DNA from: Candidatus Parcubacteria bacterium
GTDB lineage: Bacteria; Patescibacteriota; Patescibacteriia; CAIXNZ01
Direction: 5' to 3'
Length of the DNA: 45,239 nucleotides
NCBI GenBank assembly: GCA_026395675.1
Contig: JAPLYF010000084.1
Location: forward strand, 1 to 45,239
Made by a program: the position numbers and the translations under genes. Of this stretch, positions 3,732-28,598 are shown one piece after another. Each line of letters opens with the position of its first letter. The first letter of the stretch is position 1. A model generated the notes under the pieces. It was not told the DNA's origin. It searched no databases and saw nothing but the letters and a program-made list of their open reading frames with translations.

Positions 3732-4280
3732 TTAACCGGCTGCTTTAGCCGCGGTTTTGCCTGCCTTTTTACGAATTATTTCGCCAGCATACCTTATACC
3801 CTTGCCTTTGTAGGGTTCAGGTTTTCTAAGACGCCTGATTTGGGCTGCAATTTCTCCTACCTGCTGCTTATCAATGCCTGTCAGGATAATTATATTTTTA
3901 TCAACTGCTCCGGTTATGCCACTAGGTAAAGGGAAATCAATAGGGTGAGAAAAACCAAGATTTAAAATCAGTTTATTCCCCTGTAAATTTACTTTATAAC
4001 CGACACCGATCACTTCTAATTTTTTTTCATAACCTTCCCTCACGCCCTTAATCATATTCTTAATTAAACTGCCAAAGAGGCCCCAAAGGGCTTTTTGCTT
4101 TTTTTCTTTTGGCTCACTGACTGTAATTAATATTTTTTTGTCTTTCAGCTCAATTCGAACTAAGGGGTGAATTTTTTGCTTTAATTCACCTTTTGGCCCC
4201 TTAATTACAAGCTCGTTTTCTTTTATTTCAACCTTAATGTCATCGGGGATAATTATAGGTTTTTTGCCAATTCTGGACAT
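3732..4280 (-). CDS. rplF: 50S ribosomal protein L6
   Basis: [12 protein letters not shown]...GPKGEL; C-terminal PYKGKGIRY. Confidence 0.95.
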
Positions 4281-4288
4281 AGTATTTG

Positions 4289-4330
4289 AATTATGAATTA
4301 CGAATTATGAATTCCGAAATCAGAATTTAC
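4289..4330. repeat. six tandem AATTAYG-like heptads
   Basis: aattatg aattacg aattatg aattccg aaatcag aatttac, read directly. Confidence 0.6.
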
Positions 4331-4353: not shown

Positions 4354-4388
4354 CCGACCGAAGTCCCGCCTTGCGGGACGAAGGTCGG
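4354..4388. repeat. REP-like compound palindrome (outer stem / 3x3 loop / GTCCCGC stem)
   Basis: ccgacc gaa gtcccgc ctt gcgggac gaa ggtcgg. Same architecture as 28293-28329 and 28564-28598. Confidence 0.7.
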
Positions 4389-5637: not shown

Positions 5638-6009
5638 TTAATCAATTAATTCCTTGCATTTGCTGCAGATTCTGACTTTTTGCCCTTTTTTCTCGCTGAG
5701 CTGGGGCAGTATTTTGCTTTTCACTCGAGCCGGCCGATTGCATTTTGGGCACATTATCATTAAATTGGAAATATTAAGAGGCGCCGGAAATTCAATTTTC
5801 TGGCCTTTTTCTCCTTGTCGCTTAGGTCTTAAATGTTTAATCGCCAAATTTATTCCTTCAACAGAAGCTTTATTGCGATCAAGAAAAATCTGCAAGACCT
5901 TGCCTTTTTTGCCTTTGTCCTTGCCAGCGATTACTTTTACTTTATCGCCTCTTTTAATTTTTCCGCCGTAGGCGGATCCCGCTTTGCGGGGCATATTCTT
6001 TTTTTTCAT
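5638..6009 (-). CDS. rplX: 50S ribosomal protein L24 (KOW domain, Cys4 C-terminal form)
   Basis: KIKRGDKVKVIAGKDKGKKGKV; CPKC...CSKC. The N-terminal 16 aa are encoded partly by a twin hairpin. Confidence 0.85.
   Translation of the reverse strand: MKKKNMPRKAGSAYGGKIKRGDKVKVIAGKDKGKKGKVLQIFLDRNKASVEGINLAIKHLRPKRQGEKGQKIEFPAPLNISNLMIMCPKCNRPARVKSKILPQLSEKKGQKVRICSKCKELID
5962..5991 (-). repeat. twin GC hairpin element immediately after the ATG at 5994
   Basis: Sense strand: ATG CCCCGC aaa GCGGG a TCCGCC tac GGCGGA. Confidence 0.65.
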
Positions 6010-6024
6010 TATTGTAAAAATTAT

Positions 6025-6396
6025 TTATAATACTTCTGGCGCCAAGGAAATTATTTTAGTAAACCCTTTGCCTCTTAATTCTCTGGCCACCGGACCTAGG
6101 ATGCGTGTACCTTTTGGCTCTTTACTTTTAGGATCAATAATAACTGCGGCATTATCATCAAATCTGATATATGACCCGTCTTTACGCCTAGTTTCCTTTC
6201 TCGTCCTCACCAAAACAGCTTTAACAATATCACCCTTCTTTACCATGGAATGGGGGATTGCTTCTTTTACTGTGGCAGTAATAATATCACTCAGACGGGC
6301 ATATCTTTTTTTATAGCCGCCTAAGACCCTGATCACCATTATTTTTTTTGCTCCGGAATTATCAGCCAAATTCAAAATTGTTCGATGCTGTACCAT
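6025..6396 (-). CDS. rplN: 50S ribosomal protein L14
   Basis: [18 protein letters not shown]... is canonical L14. Confidence 0.96.
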
Positions 6397-20493: not shown

Positions 20494-20656
20494 GGTTGAT
20501 AAAATCAAAATTTTAATCTAAACTATATATAAGATTTTAAAATCAACGGGCTATAGCGCCCGCCGTCGCTAAAGCTATGGCGGGCAGGCAGCAAGAAGGC
20601 TAACTATACACGACGATAGCCAACTGCGGCTCGAATTTAAAAAATTTAATAATTTA

Positions 20657-20730
20657 CGGGCTGTAGCGCAGTTGGCTAGCGCGCATGCATGGGGTGCATG
20701 AGGTCGCGGGTTCAAGTCCCGCCAGCCCGA
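20657..20730 (+). tRNA. tRNA-Pro (anticodon GGG)
   Basis: Manual cloverleaf: cgggctg/cagcccg acceptor, gcgc D stem, catgc-atGGGgt-gcatg, gcggg-ttcaagt-cccgc. 74 nt, no encoded CCA. Confidence 0.88.
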
Positions 20731-20748
20731 CAATGATAAAAACGAGTT

Positions 20749-20778
20749 TCCGCCAAAGGCGGATCCGCCACTGGCGGA
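20749..20778 (+). repeat. twin hairpin element 19 nt after tRNA-Pro
   Basis: tccgcc aaa ggcgga tccgcc act ggcgga. Confidence 0.75.
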
Positions 20779-20804
20779 CAAATCCCACCGCCCCGAATAA
20801 CATT

Positions 20805-25423: not shown

Positions 25424-25780
25424 ATGGAAAAATTTAGGTTTTTAAAATGGCCAGTTTATAAAGATGCTAAAAAAATATTTGGTCTAATTTTGGAAACAGT
25501 TGAAAAATTCCCTAATCATATAAGATTCAGTATTGGCCAACAATTGATAAGAGCAGCTTTTTCAATAATTTTAAACATCGCCGAAGGTAGCGGCAGGAAA
25601 ACAGACAAAGAATTGAAAAGATATTTTGACATATCCCTTGGTTCGTGTTATGAATTATTAGCCTGTGCCGATACCTTGTCAGAACAAAATTTTATATCAC
25701 AAGAACTTTTTGAAAAAATCTATGTTTCAATTGATGAAATAACCAATCAACTCGGCGGTTTTAAAAAATCCATAAAATAG
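25424..25780 (+). CDS. four-helix-bundle protein (23S rRNA intervening-sequence / Avd-like family)
   Basis: QLIRAAFSIILNIAEGSGR.T.KE..RYF.ISLGSCYEL is the family signature. Confidence 0.8.
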   Translation: MEKFRFLKWPVYKDAKKIFGLILETVEKFPNHIRFSIGQQLIRAAFSIILNIAEGSGRKTDKELKRYFDISLGSCYELLACADTLSEQNFISQELFEKIYVSIDEITNQLGGFKKSIK

Positions 25781-25810
25781 TTGTAGAGTTGTGGAGTTGT
25801 AAAGTTGTTT
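25779..25810 (+). repeat. four tandem AGTTGTNN octamers
   Basis: agttgtag agttgtgg agttgtaa agttgttt, overlapping the stop codon. Inverted CAACT words lie at 25393-25408. Confidence 0.7.
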
Positions 25811-25813
25811 CAG

Positions 25814-25861
25814 CGGGGTATAGCGAAGTGGTATCGCGGTCCGACGTACGTCGGACAGATC
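25814..25861 (+). other. tRNA-like gene, 5' segment (acceptor, D arm, palindromic arm, variable region)
   Basis: cggggta ta gcga agtggta tcgc g gtccgacgtacgtcggac agatc. Confidence 0.6.
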
Positions 25862-25885
25862 GGCGGGTTTAAATAAATTAATTGT

Positions 25886-26164
25886 ATGGAACAGGGATTT
25901 GTATACATTATACAAAGTCAAACATCAAACAATTATTATACTGGCTCAAGTGAAAATCCTACCAAAAGACTTTCCGAACATAATCGGGGAAAAGTAAAAT
26001 CCACCAGGAATAAAGGTCCCTGGATTTTAAAATTCACACAAGGTTTTCCTACCATAAAAGAGGCTAAGCAAATTGAATACATGATTAAGAAACTGAAAAG
26101 AAGGGATTATCTAGAAAGAATTATTCAAGATGGATATATTAAGATGAAAATAAACGGGCTGTAG
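25886..26164 (+). CDS. small GIY-YIG nuclease family protein (YhbQ/Slx1-like)
   Basis: GFVYIIQS....YYTGSS.N...RL.EHN.GK...T...GPW. The last 3 codons and the stop lie inside tRNA-Pro. Confidence 0.8.
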   Translation: MEQGFVYIIQSQTSNNYYTGSSENPTKRLSEHNRGKVKSTRNKGPWILKFTQGFPTIKEAKQIEYMIKKLKRRDYLERIIQDGYIKMKINGL

Positions 26165-26228
26165 CGAAGCTGGCTATCGCGCCACGTTCGGGACGTGGAG
26201 ACCGGCGGTTCAAATCCGCCCAGCCCGA
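26155..26228 (+). tRNA. tRNA-Pro (anticodon CGG)
   Basis: cgggctg ta gcga agctggcta tcgc g ccacg ttCGGga cgtgg agacc ggcgg ttcaaat ccgcc cagcccg a. Confidence 0.88.
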
Positions 26229-26235
26229 CCCATAG

Positions 26236-26287
26236 CGCGGTCCGACGGACGTCGGACAGATCCCGAGTTCGAATCTCGGTACCCCGA
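26236..26287 (+). other. tRNA-like gene, 3' segment (palindromic arm, T arm, acceptor)
   Basis: cgcg gtccgacggacgtcggac agatc ccgag ttcgaat ctcgg taccccg a. The 3' acceptor is perfectly complementary to 25814-25820. Confidence 0.6.
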
Positions 26288-26306
26288 AAACTTACCAAAG
26301 CTGTTT

Positions 26307-26362
26307 GGCGCGCCCCGATGAACGTCGGGGAGGTCGCCCCGCAGTGCGTGGCCAGCCCGACC
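26307..26362 (+). pseudogene. tRNA-Pro-derived 3' fragment with the anticodon arm replaced by a palindrome
   Basis: ggcgcg ccccgatgaacgtcgggg aggtcgc...ccagcccgacc. Shares aggtcgc and the 3' end with tRNA-Pro. Confidence 0.5.
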
Positions 26363-26393
26363 AAGTTAAAATTCTCAAAATTAAATACTAACA

Positions 26394-27630: not shown

Positions 27631-27665
27631 AAAAACCGCTCCCCGCAACGCGGGGAACGGTTTTT
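27631..27665. terminator. GC hairpin terminator (ccccgc core)
   Basis: aaaaaccgctccccgc aac gcggggaacggttttt. Confidence 0.6.
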
Positions 27666-28292: not shown

Positions 28293-28329
28293 GCCCTCCG
28301 TAGTCCCGCTGTGCGGGACGTAGGAGGGC
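28293..28329. repeat. REP-like compound palindrome
   Basis: gccctcc gta gtcccgc tgt gcgggac gta ggagggc. Confidence 0.75.
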
Positions 28330-28365: not shown

Positions 28366-28384
28366 AGCCCCGCGGCGCGGGGCT
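28366..28384 (-). terminator. agccccgc/gcggggct hairpin plus U-run
   Basis: The sense strand is followed by gguuuuauuuuug. Confidence 0.55.
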
Positions 28385-28563: not shown

Positions 28564-28598
28564 TCCACCGAAGTCCCGCTCGGCGGGACGTAGGCGGA
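28564..28598. repeat. REP-like compound palindrome abutting the ndk stop codon
   Basis: tccacc gaa gtcccgc tcg gcgggac gta ggcgga. The outer stem closes fully only on the minus-strand RNA, through one G.U pair. Confidence 0.75.

Follow-up and report, generated by a model that had tools for sequence, protein, structure and literature searches.

At positions 25814-26287 of a 45,239-bp contig from a Candidatus Parcubacteria bacterium (the window, to which all coordinates without a contig name refer), two halves of a tRNA-like cloverleaf lie on either side of a small GIY-YIG nuclease gene and a complete tRNA-Pro(CGG), and both halves carry a palindrome in the place of an anticodon arm. What are these halves, and how did a nuclease gene come to lie between them? 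A preliminary description had proposed that a nuclease cassette invaded, or recombined between, tRNA genes with duplication of its target, and that the halves belong to a family of tRNA-shaped RNAs. Here we report that the halves are parts of ordinary tRNA-Pro genes, and that the nuclease gene goes together with the same kind of debris at other tRNA genes. We consider it probable that the locus is a selfish cassette in tRNA-Pro debris, in which a homing-type nuclease turns over tRNA alleles and leaves stacked fossils behind.

Origin of the two halves

Both pieces were found as they had been described. The 5′ piece (25814-25861) consists of an acceptor strand cggggta, a D arm gcga-agtggta-tcgc, the perfect 18-nt palindrome gtccgacGTACgtcggac at 25839-25856 and agatc. 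The 3′ piece (26236-26287) starts with a direct repeat, goes on with the T arm ccgag-ttcgaat-ctcgg and ends with taccccg-a, which pairs with 25814-25820. The repeat, 26236-26262 against 25835-25861, is identical at 26 of 27 positions, and a repeat search lengthens it to 30 nt at 93% identity. Upon in silico removal of 25862-26262 (401 nt), the minimum-energy fold of the joined sequence is indeed a 73-nt cloverleaf with an arm of 7 bp and 4 nt (−34.2 kcal/mol, z = −3.4), to which ARAGORN assigns ‘tRNA-?’ with a 6-nt loop; the first hairpin copy by itself folds with 7 bp and 4 nt at −10.8 kcal/mol. The GIY-YIG open reading frame (ORF) is also as described, with its last codons and TAG stop inside the tRNA-Pro(CGG), and the left fragment does run on into the T stem of the neighbouring tRNA (ggcgg-gtttaaat). 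A third hairpin fragment had been overlooked behind the 3′ piece, at 26306-26363, with the order gcgcg-ccccgatGAACgtcgggg-aggtc, a degenerate T arm and cagcccgacca, the last being the 3′ end of the live tRNA. The motif CCGACGNACGTCGG (≤2 mismatches) occurs at three sites of the window, i.e. six strand hits versus 0.04 expected by chance, and CCGACG..CGTCGG is confined to these tRNA-debris sites, with none elsewhere in the 45 kb. An assembly artefact was ruled out, because the repeats (27-50 nt) are shorter than the assembler k-mers and the architecture recurs in independent assemblies. Features of the window are collected in Table 1, where F5, F3a and F3b denote the 5′ fragment and the two successive 3′ fragments.

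Table 1. Features around the two tRNA-Pro genes of the window
Feature	Position	Strand	Remarks
F5, 5′ pseudo-tRNA-Pro fragment	25814..25873	+	allele X 1-26, identical to intact tRNA-Pro(CGG) of L134; then hairpin for anticodon arm, variable loop agatc, T-stem 5′ strand ggcgg of allele Y, broken T loop gtttaaat
Hairpin copy 1, GTCCGACGTACGTCGGAC	25839..25856	none	perfect 18-nt palindrome replacing tRNA positions 27-43
GIY-YIG nuclease gene, 92 aa	25886..26164	+	UPF0213/YhbQ/SLX1 class; PF01541
Live tRNA-Pro(CGG), allele Y, encoded CCA	26155..26231	+	ARAGORN (26155-26230); Rfam RF00005, 64.5 bits
F3a, 3′ pseudo-tRNA fragment	26233..26287	+	tagcgcg (D-stem 3′ strand of allele Z), hairpin copy 2, allele X 44-73
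Hairpin copy 2	26240-26257		GGAC centre
F3b, older decayed 3′ fragment	26306..26363	+	hairpin copy 3, ccccgatGAACgtcgggg, at 26313-26330, one G.T pair; cagcccga-cca of allele Y
Four-helix-bundle protein gene (‘23S rRNA intervening-sequence protein’, Avd-like)	25424..25780	+	directly 5′ of F5
Three 8-nt tandem repeats, AGTTGTRGAGTTGT (AGTTGTRGAG)	25779..25808	+	between four-helix-bundle gene and F5; conserved in L175
5′ pseudo-tRNA-Pro fragment, GGG locus	20547..20640	+	cgggctatagcg, GC hairpin insert, gcggctcgaattt; just 5′ of tRNA-Pro(GGG)
Live tRNA-Pro(GGG)	20657..20731	+	ARAGORN, Rfam
3′ fossil, GGG locus	20745..20796	+	two TCCGCC...GGCGGA hairpins (TCCGCCaaaGGCGGA, TCCGCCactGGCGGA), then caaatcccaccgccccga

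The origin of the halves became clear from another contig, L134, which was found by its hairpin pattern and contains an intact tRNA-Pro(CGG), cggggtatagcgaagtggtatcgcg-cacggttcgggaccgtg-agatcccgagttcgaatctcggtaccccga, with the anticodon arm cacgg-ttcggga-ccgtg. Positions 1-26 of F5 together with positions 44-73 of F3a agree with this tRNA at every position outside the anticodon arm. Thus, the ‘cloverleaf without anticodon’ is a normal tRNA-Pro(CGG) allele, here called X, in which positions 27-43 were replaced by the hairpin, and the view of the two halves as a novel RNA has to be given up.

A functional tRNA-shaped RNA whose arm is a palindrome, consisting of the halves or of a joined product (possibly a split tRNA whose halves are united as RNA), is accordingly very improbable, even though the joined sequence folds as a cloverleaf, the hairpins lie in loops and not in stems, and a complete hairpin pseudo-tRNA at two other loci (L144 and L151) keeps perfect acceptor pairing around a nested tRNA. 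The joined form has no anticodon and a loop of 4-6 nt only, and it exists only after 401 nt are deleted in silico; the fragments overlap, with 27-50 nt duplicated, rather than abut, F5 continues into the T stem of another allele, the older copies decay, and the gene that is intact in L134 encodes a normal tRNA-Pro. An uninterrupted hairpin cloverleaf was searched for and not found: at none of the ∼21 sites with a complete T arm is the 5′ acceptor strand contiguous with the rest, and the strand that matches is instead found 90-430 nt further upstream, as part of either a 5′ fragment or the live tRNA. The proposed family with a palindromic arm is therefore real, with ∼30 sites, but its members are not tRNA-shaped RNA genes. 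In an Rfam scan of the window at gathering and permissive (E ≤ 10) thresholds, only the two real tRNAs were recovered and neither half matched the tRNA model. Archaeal split and permuted tRNA genes likewise encode the 5′ and 3′ halves of a cloverleaf apart; in contrast, the halves in the window belong to a bacterium, overlap by 27-30 nt, and have no anticodon, complementary leaders or bulge-helix-bulge motifs.

Comparison of alleles showed that the fragments have been shuffled. In the window allele Y is live and X and Y are fossils; in L134 allele X is live and Z and Y are fossils (Y only as a hairpin-bearing 3′ fossil); in L001, whose nuclease is 83% identical to that of the window, allele Z is live and Y is found as fossils. 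F5 is a chimera of X(1-26), hairpin and a Y-type T stem, and F3a is a chimera of Z(20-26), hairpin and X(44-73), whose first 28 nt (atagcgcg, hairpin and ag) are common to F3a and the Z-type 3′ fragment of L134. Since single fragments mix alleles, the hairpin with its conserved flanks is the point at which pieces of different alleles were joined. The 27-nt repeat is this hairpin module plus conserved flanks, common to fragments of different tRNA alleles, and a target duplication of the transposase type is hence not what it records. Decay grows with distance from the live gene, as seen in F3b, in the 3′ fragment of L001 and in the hairpin mismatch of the Y-type 3′ fragment of L134, and the alleles indicate that the fossil stack is a record of serial tRNA allele replacement and not a set of RNA genes. 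A tRNA-Val locus (L139, oriented 4030-4290) has two hairpin 3′ fragments that are reciprocal chimeras of each other (acagg...ccact and agtgg...cctgt); their junction falls within the T loop, which points to recombination there.

The nuclease and its association with hairpin-bearing debris

The nuclease is a bare GIY-YIG domain of 92 aa (PF01541, 68.6 bits with a cut-off of 22.6, E = 6e-19). Its nearest solved structures are the UPF0213 proteins BH0048 (1zg2, E = 3e-9) and EF2693 (1ywl, 3e-6), followed by SLX1 (2e-3), and its relatives, size (∼90-100 aa), single domain and motifs agree with the UPF0213/YhbQ/SLX1 branch. The catalytic residues Y7, Y18, R28, H32 and E64 are invariant in 15 relatives, and the ratio of nonsynonymous to synonymous substitution rates (dN/dS) between the nucleases of the window and L001 is ∼0.1, so that the protein looks functional. 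The genes in L134 are ∼70% identical to that of the window, and in the window, L134, L135 and L149 the stop codon is a TAG at positions 8-10 of the tRNA. At E ≤ 1e-3, relatives fall into 3,439 clusters of 50% identity. A tblastn search of 50,697 phage records gave one weak match only, the PHROG match was marginal and limited to the N terminus, PADLOC defence-system models matched neither the nuclease nor the four-helix-bundle protein encoded upstream, and a search of viral contigs for related loci found nothing.

A weak sigma-70-like match, TAGAAA-17-TATATT (9/12), lies at 26112-26140, inside the 3′ end of the nuclease ORF and 5′ of tRNA-Pro(CGG), and the live tRNA may have its own promoter. 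Alternatively, if nuclease and tRNA were co-transcribed, RNase P cleavage would take off the stop codon of the ORF.

Nuclease and hairpin are linked. Nine loci, namely the window and eight homologue contigs, were chosen by protein similarity only, and in all nine the nuclease gene lies between an intact tRNA and GC-hairpin-bearing pseudo-tRNA pieces; the suspicion that such GIY-YIG genes are systematically tRNA-adjacent thus holds for the window and its relatives. The tRNA is Pro(CGG) in the window, L001, L002, L003 and L178, Pro(TGG) in L004 and L177, initiator Met in L152 and Ile in L162. The hairpin NN-CCGACG-N2-3-CGTCGG-NN stands exactly in the place of the anticodon arm in six of them; in L002, CCGAC...GTCGG hairpins occur four times but elsewhere in the pieces, in L162 the arm is replaced by CCCCGCTGtcCAGCGGGG and the D loop contains CCCGACtaaGTCGGG, and L152 has D-loop hairpins only. 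In L152 (2240-2530), tRNA-Asp, which belongs to a cluster of fMet, Met and Asp tRNAs, is directly followed by another GIY-YIG gene (79 aa) that is more distantly related, and a hairpin-riddled 3′ pseudo-tRNA follows tRNA-Met. Altogether the nuclease family was recorded at Pro, Val, Arg, Ile and fMet tRNAs.

Metagenomes were also scanned for the hairpin followed by a T loop. This gave 18 loci with 19 sites, all in debris beside tRNA-Pro, tRNA-Val or tRNA-Arg, and the nuclease is adjacent in 6 of the 18. The pattern fixed the hairpin core and left the two outermost pairs free; these are nevertheless paired at 28 and 27 of 29 sites, respectively, and four different Watson-Crick combinations are used. 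A scan of genome contigs with the hairpin and variable loop alone was swamped by chance matches in high-GC genomes. A looser pattern applied to viral contigs returned mostly real tRNAs and also turned up L131 (1-760), an IMG/VR contig of 55% GC with three pseudo-tRNA-Pro copies carrying the variant arm tcCCGATCTTAATCGGga, a related GIY-YIG gene and tRNA-Pro(TGG), i.e. the architecture of the window, but with another hairpin and on a contig assigned to viruses.

The loci differ in the order of their parts. The window, L001, L003, L004, L134, L136, L146 and L177 have a 5′ hairpin fragment, the nuclease, the live tRNA and, in part, a 3′ hairpin fragment; L162 and L178 have a 5′ hairpin fragment, the live tRNA, the nuclease and a 3′ hairpin fragment; L145 and L149 have the live tRNA, the nuclease and a hairpin pseudo-tRNA, and L135 has the hairpin pseudo-tRNA and nuclease in repeated form. 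Other loci have no nuclease: a live tRNA is followed by a 3′ hairpin fragment in L137, L138, L140, L141, L143 and L148, and, in L150, by a hairpin fragment that stops after its T loop. In L147 (oriented 780-970) a cysteine-rich, zinc-ribbon-like ORF of ∼66 aa takes the place of the nuclease, with tRNA-Val(GAC) on one side and a hairpin 3′ fragment on the other. In L144 and L151 the D loop of a complete hairpin pseudo-tRNA contains an intact nested tRNA, Arg-CCG in L144 (oriented 190-370) and Val-GAC in L151 (oriented 5930-6190); inverted repeats of 14-17 nt bracket the nested tRNA and would close the insertion as a stem, and the outer pseudo-tRNA has full acceptor pairing. The 5′ fragment before the nuclease usually ends at or just after the T loop (the window, L002, L004, L136 and L177), and the truncated fragments of L150 and L162 have the T-loop break point too, with no nuclease ORF after it. 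Boundaries vary by locus, with 3′ fragments starting from position 10 to 22 and 5′ fragments ending from ∼52 to 61.

The CC-type hairpin CCCCGA...TCGGGG resembles the 3′ end (CCCCGA) and then the 5′ end (CGGGG) of tRNA-Pro in permuted order, and TCCGCC...GGCGGA resembles the two T-stem strands in swapped order; both likenesses may be coincidence. That the hairpin arose by deletion or palindromisation of a Pro anticodon arm, or out of the termini of tRNA-Pro (CCCCGA/TCGGGG), was rejected because the lengths do not fit.

Evidence for mobility and a proposed role of the hairpin

The nuclease gene is polymorphic at an orthologous site, which together with mosaic flanks and a patchy distribution is what one looks for in a homing gene. 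Contig L174 is syntenic with the window over an LssY-like gene, a P-type ATPase, YkuD (70% identity), NDK and a metallo-beta-lactamase. Between ATPase and YkuD, however, L174 has only tRNA-Pro(CGG) and a hairpin fossil, without the nuclease and without the four-helix-bundle gene, whereas the site is filled in the window; L175 has a four-helix-bundle remnant, a 5′ fragment and a tRNA, again without nuclease. Mosaicism is seen in the chimeric fragments and in the units of L134, and the distribution is spread over five tRNA types. The cassette also forms tandem arrays, with three units in L134 and two in L135, and copy number differs within one population (two units in L163, one in L162). Due to the fact that the copy differences of L134 cluster in one 110-nt patch, its units are mosaic, and dating of the array by dN/dS was dropped. 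Moreover, L006, a contig of 565 bp, is a circular permutation of the 424-nt unit of L004, and its junction is the hybrid expected from recombination between two hairpin repeats, as would be seen in a tandem array or in an excised circle.

These data bear on two other explanations. Passive debris would arise by tandem tRNA duplication and decay, with terminator- or REP-like (repetitive extragenic palindromic) mini-hairpins settling in dead copies and the GIY-YIG gene a bystander or a housekeeping gene. In its favour, many hairpin fragments have no nuclease nearby, other GC mini-hairpins lie near gene ends in this genome (e.g. GTCCCGCnnnGCGGGAC, three times), D and T loops also carry hairpins, of varied sequence (L139, L142, L148, L149 and L162), and TCCGCCaaaGGCGGA is present in both the window and L162. 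However, debris of this kind surrounds the nuclease at all nine loci chosen by protein similarity, and in many lineages its ORF is fused to the 5′ end of the tRNA. The gene is filled in or missing at an orthologous site and is included in tandem arrays, the same hairpin stands for precisely positions 27-43 of Pro, Val and Arg tRNAs, and within the window its sequence is restricted to the debris. We regard this explanation as unlikely.

A classical mobile element, i.e. an integrase island with att repeats, a transposon that duplicated its target site or a group I intron with its homing endonuclease, is hardly credible. The cassette does lie within a tRNA-like gene with direct repeats on either side, and its N terminus weakly matches the NCBIfam model for group I intron endonucleases (E = 2e-4, short of the cut-off), but there is no integrase or transposase in or beside the 401-nt insert, where the ORFs are the GIY-YIG and four-helix-bundle genes only; the repeat boundaries vary between loci, the repeats rebuild no working tRNA, and no intron RNA family was matched in Rfam at gathering thresholds or at E ≤ 10. 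Integrase islands and prophages also stack partial tRNA copies 3′ of the live tRNA as a record of successive insertions. Unlike these, the window has no integrase, an insert of only ∼400 nt, a foreign hairpin for the anticodon arm and variable boundaries.

The proposal that a nuclease cassette invaded or recombined between tRNA genes, in contrast, gains support. The nuclease ORF is fused by its stop codon to the live tRNA-Pro(CGG). For the selfish cassette we suggest the following course. The nuclease would break tRNA-like DNA, and the cassette would insert at or just after T-loop nucleotide 60; repair would copy the cassette by way of short homology arms, which the conserved parts of the tRNA flanking the hairpin would supply. 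The element's own mark would then be the hairpin, NN-CCGACG-N2-3-CGTCGG-NN, probably as a landing mark or recombination handle, and hairpin plus T arm would probably be the target of the nuclease. Real tRNAs have no hairpin and would thus be spared. Each insertion would regenerate a hairpin-bearing 3′ fragment that can be cut again, hence the tandem arrays, and as the hairpin is the only long identity between fragments of different alleles, chimeras are joined exactly there. Recombination between the two hairpin repeats would delete both the nuclease and the live tRNA and rebuild a tRNA without anticodon; because such a deletion costs the live tRNA, there would be selection against loss of the cassette.

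Several observations weigh against this course of events. A 92-aa protein without a DNA-binding domain is unlikely to be sequence-specific, so recognition would have to be structural or aided by a partner. The hairpin sequence is not universal, as L162 and L152 demonstrate, and its core conservation is partly by design, since 19 sites were found with a pattern that fixed the core. Hairpin fragments often occur without a nuclease gene (the six tRNA-fragment loci listed above and L150), a zinc-ribbon ORF sits in the nuclease position of L147, and unrelated terminator-like GC mini-hairpins are also present in this genome. Furthermore, the nuclease is found on either side of the live tRNA (the window versus L145, L149, L162 and L178), thus there is no single fixed insertion site.

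It is also conceivable, though rather improbable, that the hairpin is only a homology breaker or ‘poison pill’, conserved by descent, and that the nuclease cuts tRNA genes generally, e.g. in the T loop. The hairpin would then block recombination between pseudo-copy and live tRNA and make any deletion product non-functional. With the hairpin in place, the longest identity between pseudo-copy and live tRNA is indeed ∼26-28 nt (L003, L136 and L146), the junctions of chimeras fall in the T loop (L139) as well as at the hairpin, and the fossil hairpins of L174 (3828-3915) are built from inverted copies of the T-loop motif GGTTCA/TGAACC and look as if T-loop breaks had been repaired by fold-back synthesis. 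On the other hand, the stem is conserved while the loop varies, across nucleases ∼35-60% identical and three tRNA types, and a nuclease of this kind would also cut the live tRNA, which is costly for a single-copy gene.

A more specific form of the selfish-cassette reading, which we put forward tentatively and regard as less likely than not, is that hairpin pseudo-tRNAs are dedicated ‘safe-harbour’ homing sites, whose shape (hairpin plus T arm) would be read by a minimal SLX1-like nuclease. Real tRNAs would be spared, while the live tRNA would be held hostage and the alleles of the host steadily replaced. SLX1 is a structure-specific nuclease acting on branched DNA, and this activity suits a hairpin or tRNA-shaped target.

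Neighbouring loci, known systems and implications

The window contains a second site of tRNA-Pro debris, at tRNA-Pro(GGG) (20547-20796), which had also been overlooked and has no nuclease gene. The tail of its 3′ fossil, caaatcccaccgccccga, and the downstream flank align with the 3′ end and flank of the intact tRNA-Pro(GGG) of L175; hence the fossil is orthologous to the L175 resident and ancestral, and the new tRNA came in on the 5′ side. Except for the anticodon arm, the body of tRNA-Pro(GGG) in the window (acceptor, D and T arms) equals that of tRNA-Pro(CGG) in L175 (3254-3327). With an identical body and a GGG versus a CGG arm, the anticodon arm behaves as a swappable module, and the difference looks as if arms had been swapped or the anticodon had shifted from one isoacceptor to another.

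The four-helix-bundle gene directly upstream of F5 may be a second small selfish gene favouring structured-RNA genes. A truncated remnant of it lies at the equivalent place in L175 (2880-3105), and it is absent at the L174 site. In 23S rRNA intervening sequences with a PF05635 ORF, a member of this family is encoded and GC helices close on themselves in loops of a structured-RNA gene, which resembles the arrangement here; the host genes in the window, in contrast, are dead copies of tRNA genes, and removal from a transcript is not implied. Elsewhere in the window, GC mini-hairpins of the form (G)TCCCGC-nnn-GCGGGA(C) occur at 4363-4379, 27640-27656, 28303-28319, 28366-28384 and 28573-28589, some with GTAG flanks and T runs after them and with GTCC...GGAC ends as in the tRNA hairpin; they look like terminators or REP-like units.

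Among known systems, the closest analogue is SegB of phages T4/T6, a free-standing GIY-YIG homing endonuclease in a phage tRNA cluster. It cuts within tRNA genes, and through these breaks a segment with nuclease and tRNA is amplified in tandem in a recombination-dependent manner (PMC13096335). The likeness lies in a GIY-YIG gene among tRNA genes, and tandem arrays and T-loop breaks of the kind described here fit the behaviour of SegB; its motif RAWTSGAAC can be read as the complement of the T-loop consensus, which is our own suggestion and not that of its authors. In contrast to the phage setting, the present loci lie in cellular chromosomes (Parcubacteria and other uncultured bacteria), the protein of the window has no extra domain or C-terminal DNA-binding region and no SegB-like sequence homology, and hairpin-substituted pseudo-tRNA flanks and stacked tRNA fossils were not reported for SegB. 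For bacterial UPF0213/YhbQ members, neither an assigned biological role nor a link to tRNA genes was found in the searchable literature. The same literature gave no description of a nuclease with hairpin pseudo-tRNAs, SegB being the only analogue. Free-standing GIY-YIG selfish genes at tRNA genes are thus the known kind to which the element belongs, although several of its features had not been reported before, and the arrangement seems to recur, previously undescribed, at many tRNA genes of uncultured bacteria.

The finding explains odd tRNA-like fragments and partial tRNAs in genomes of uncultured bacteria, which are able to mislead annotation, and it means that tRNA genes of the Candidate Phyla Radiation are replaced allele by allele with a readable stack of fossils. 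It also provides a testable lead on the function of the very common and uncharacterised YhbQ/UPF0213 nucleases. If the hairpin is a recognition mark, this would be a minimal structure-guided homing system with a built-in hold on its host. If the ‘safe-harbour’ reading were true, it would give the UPF0213/YhbQ family its first biological role and define a new class of structure-guided selfish element.

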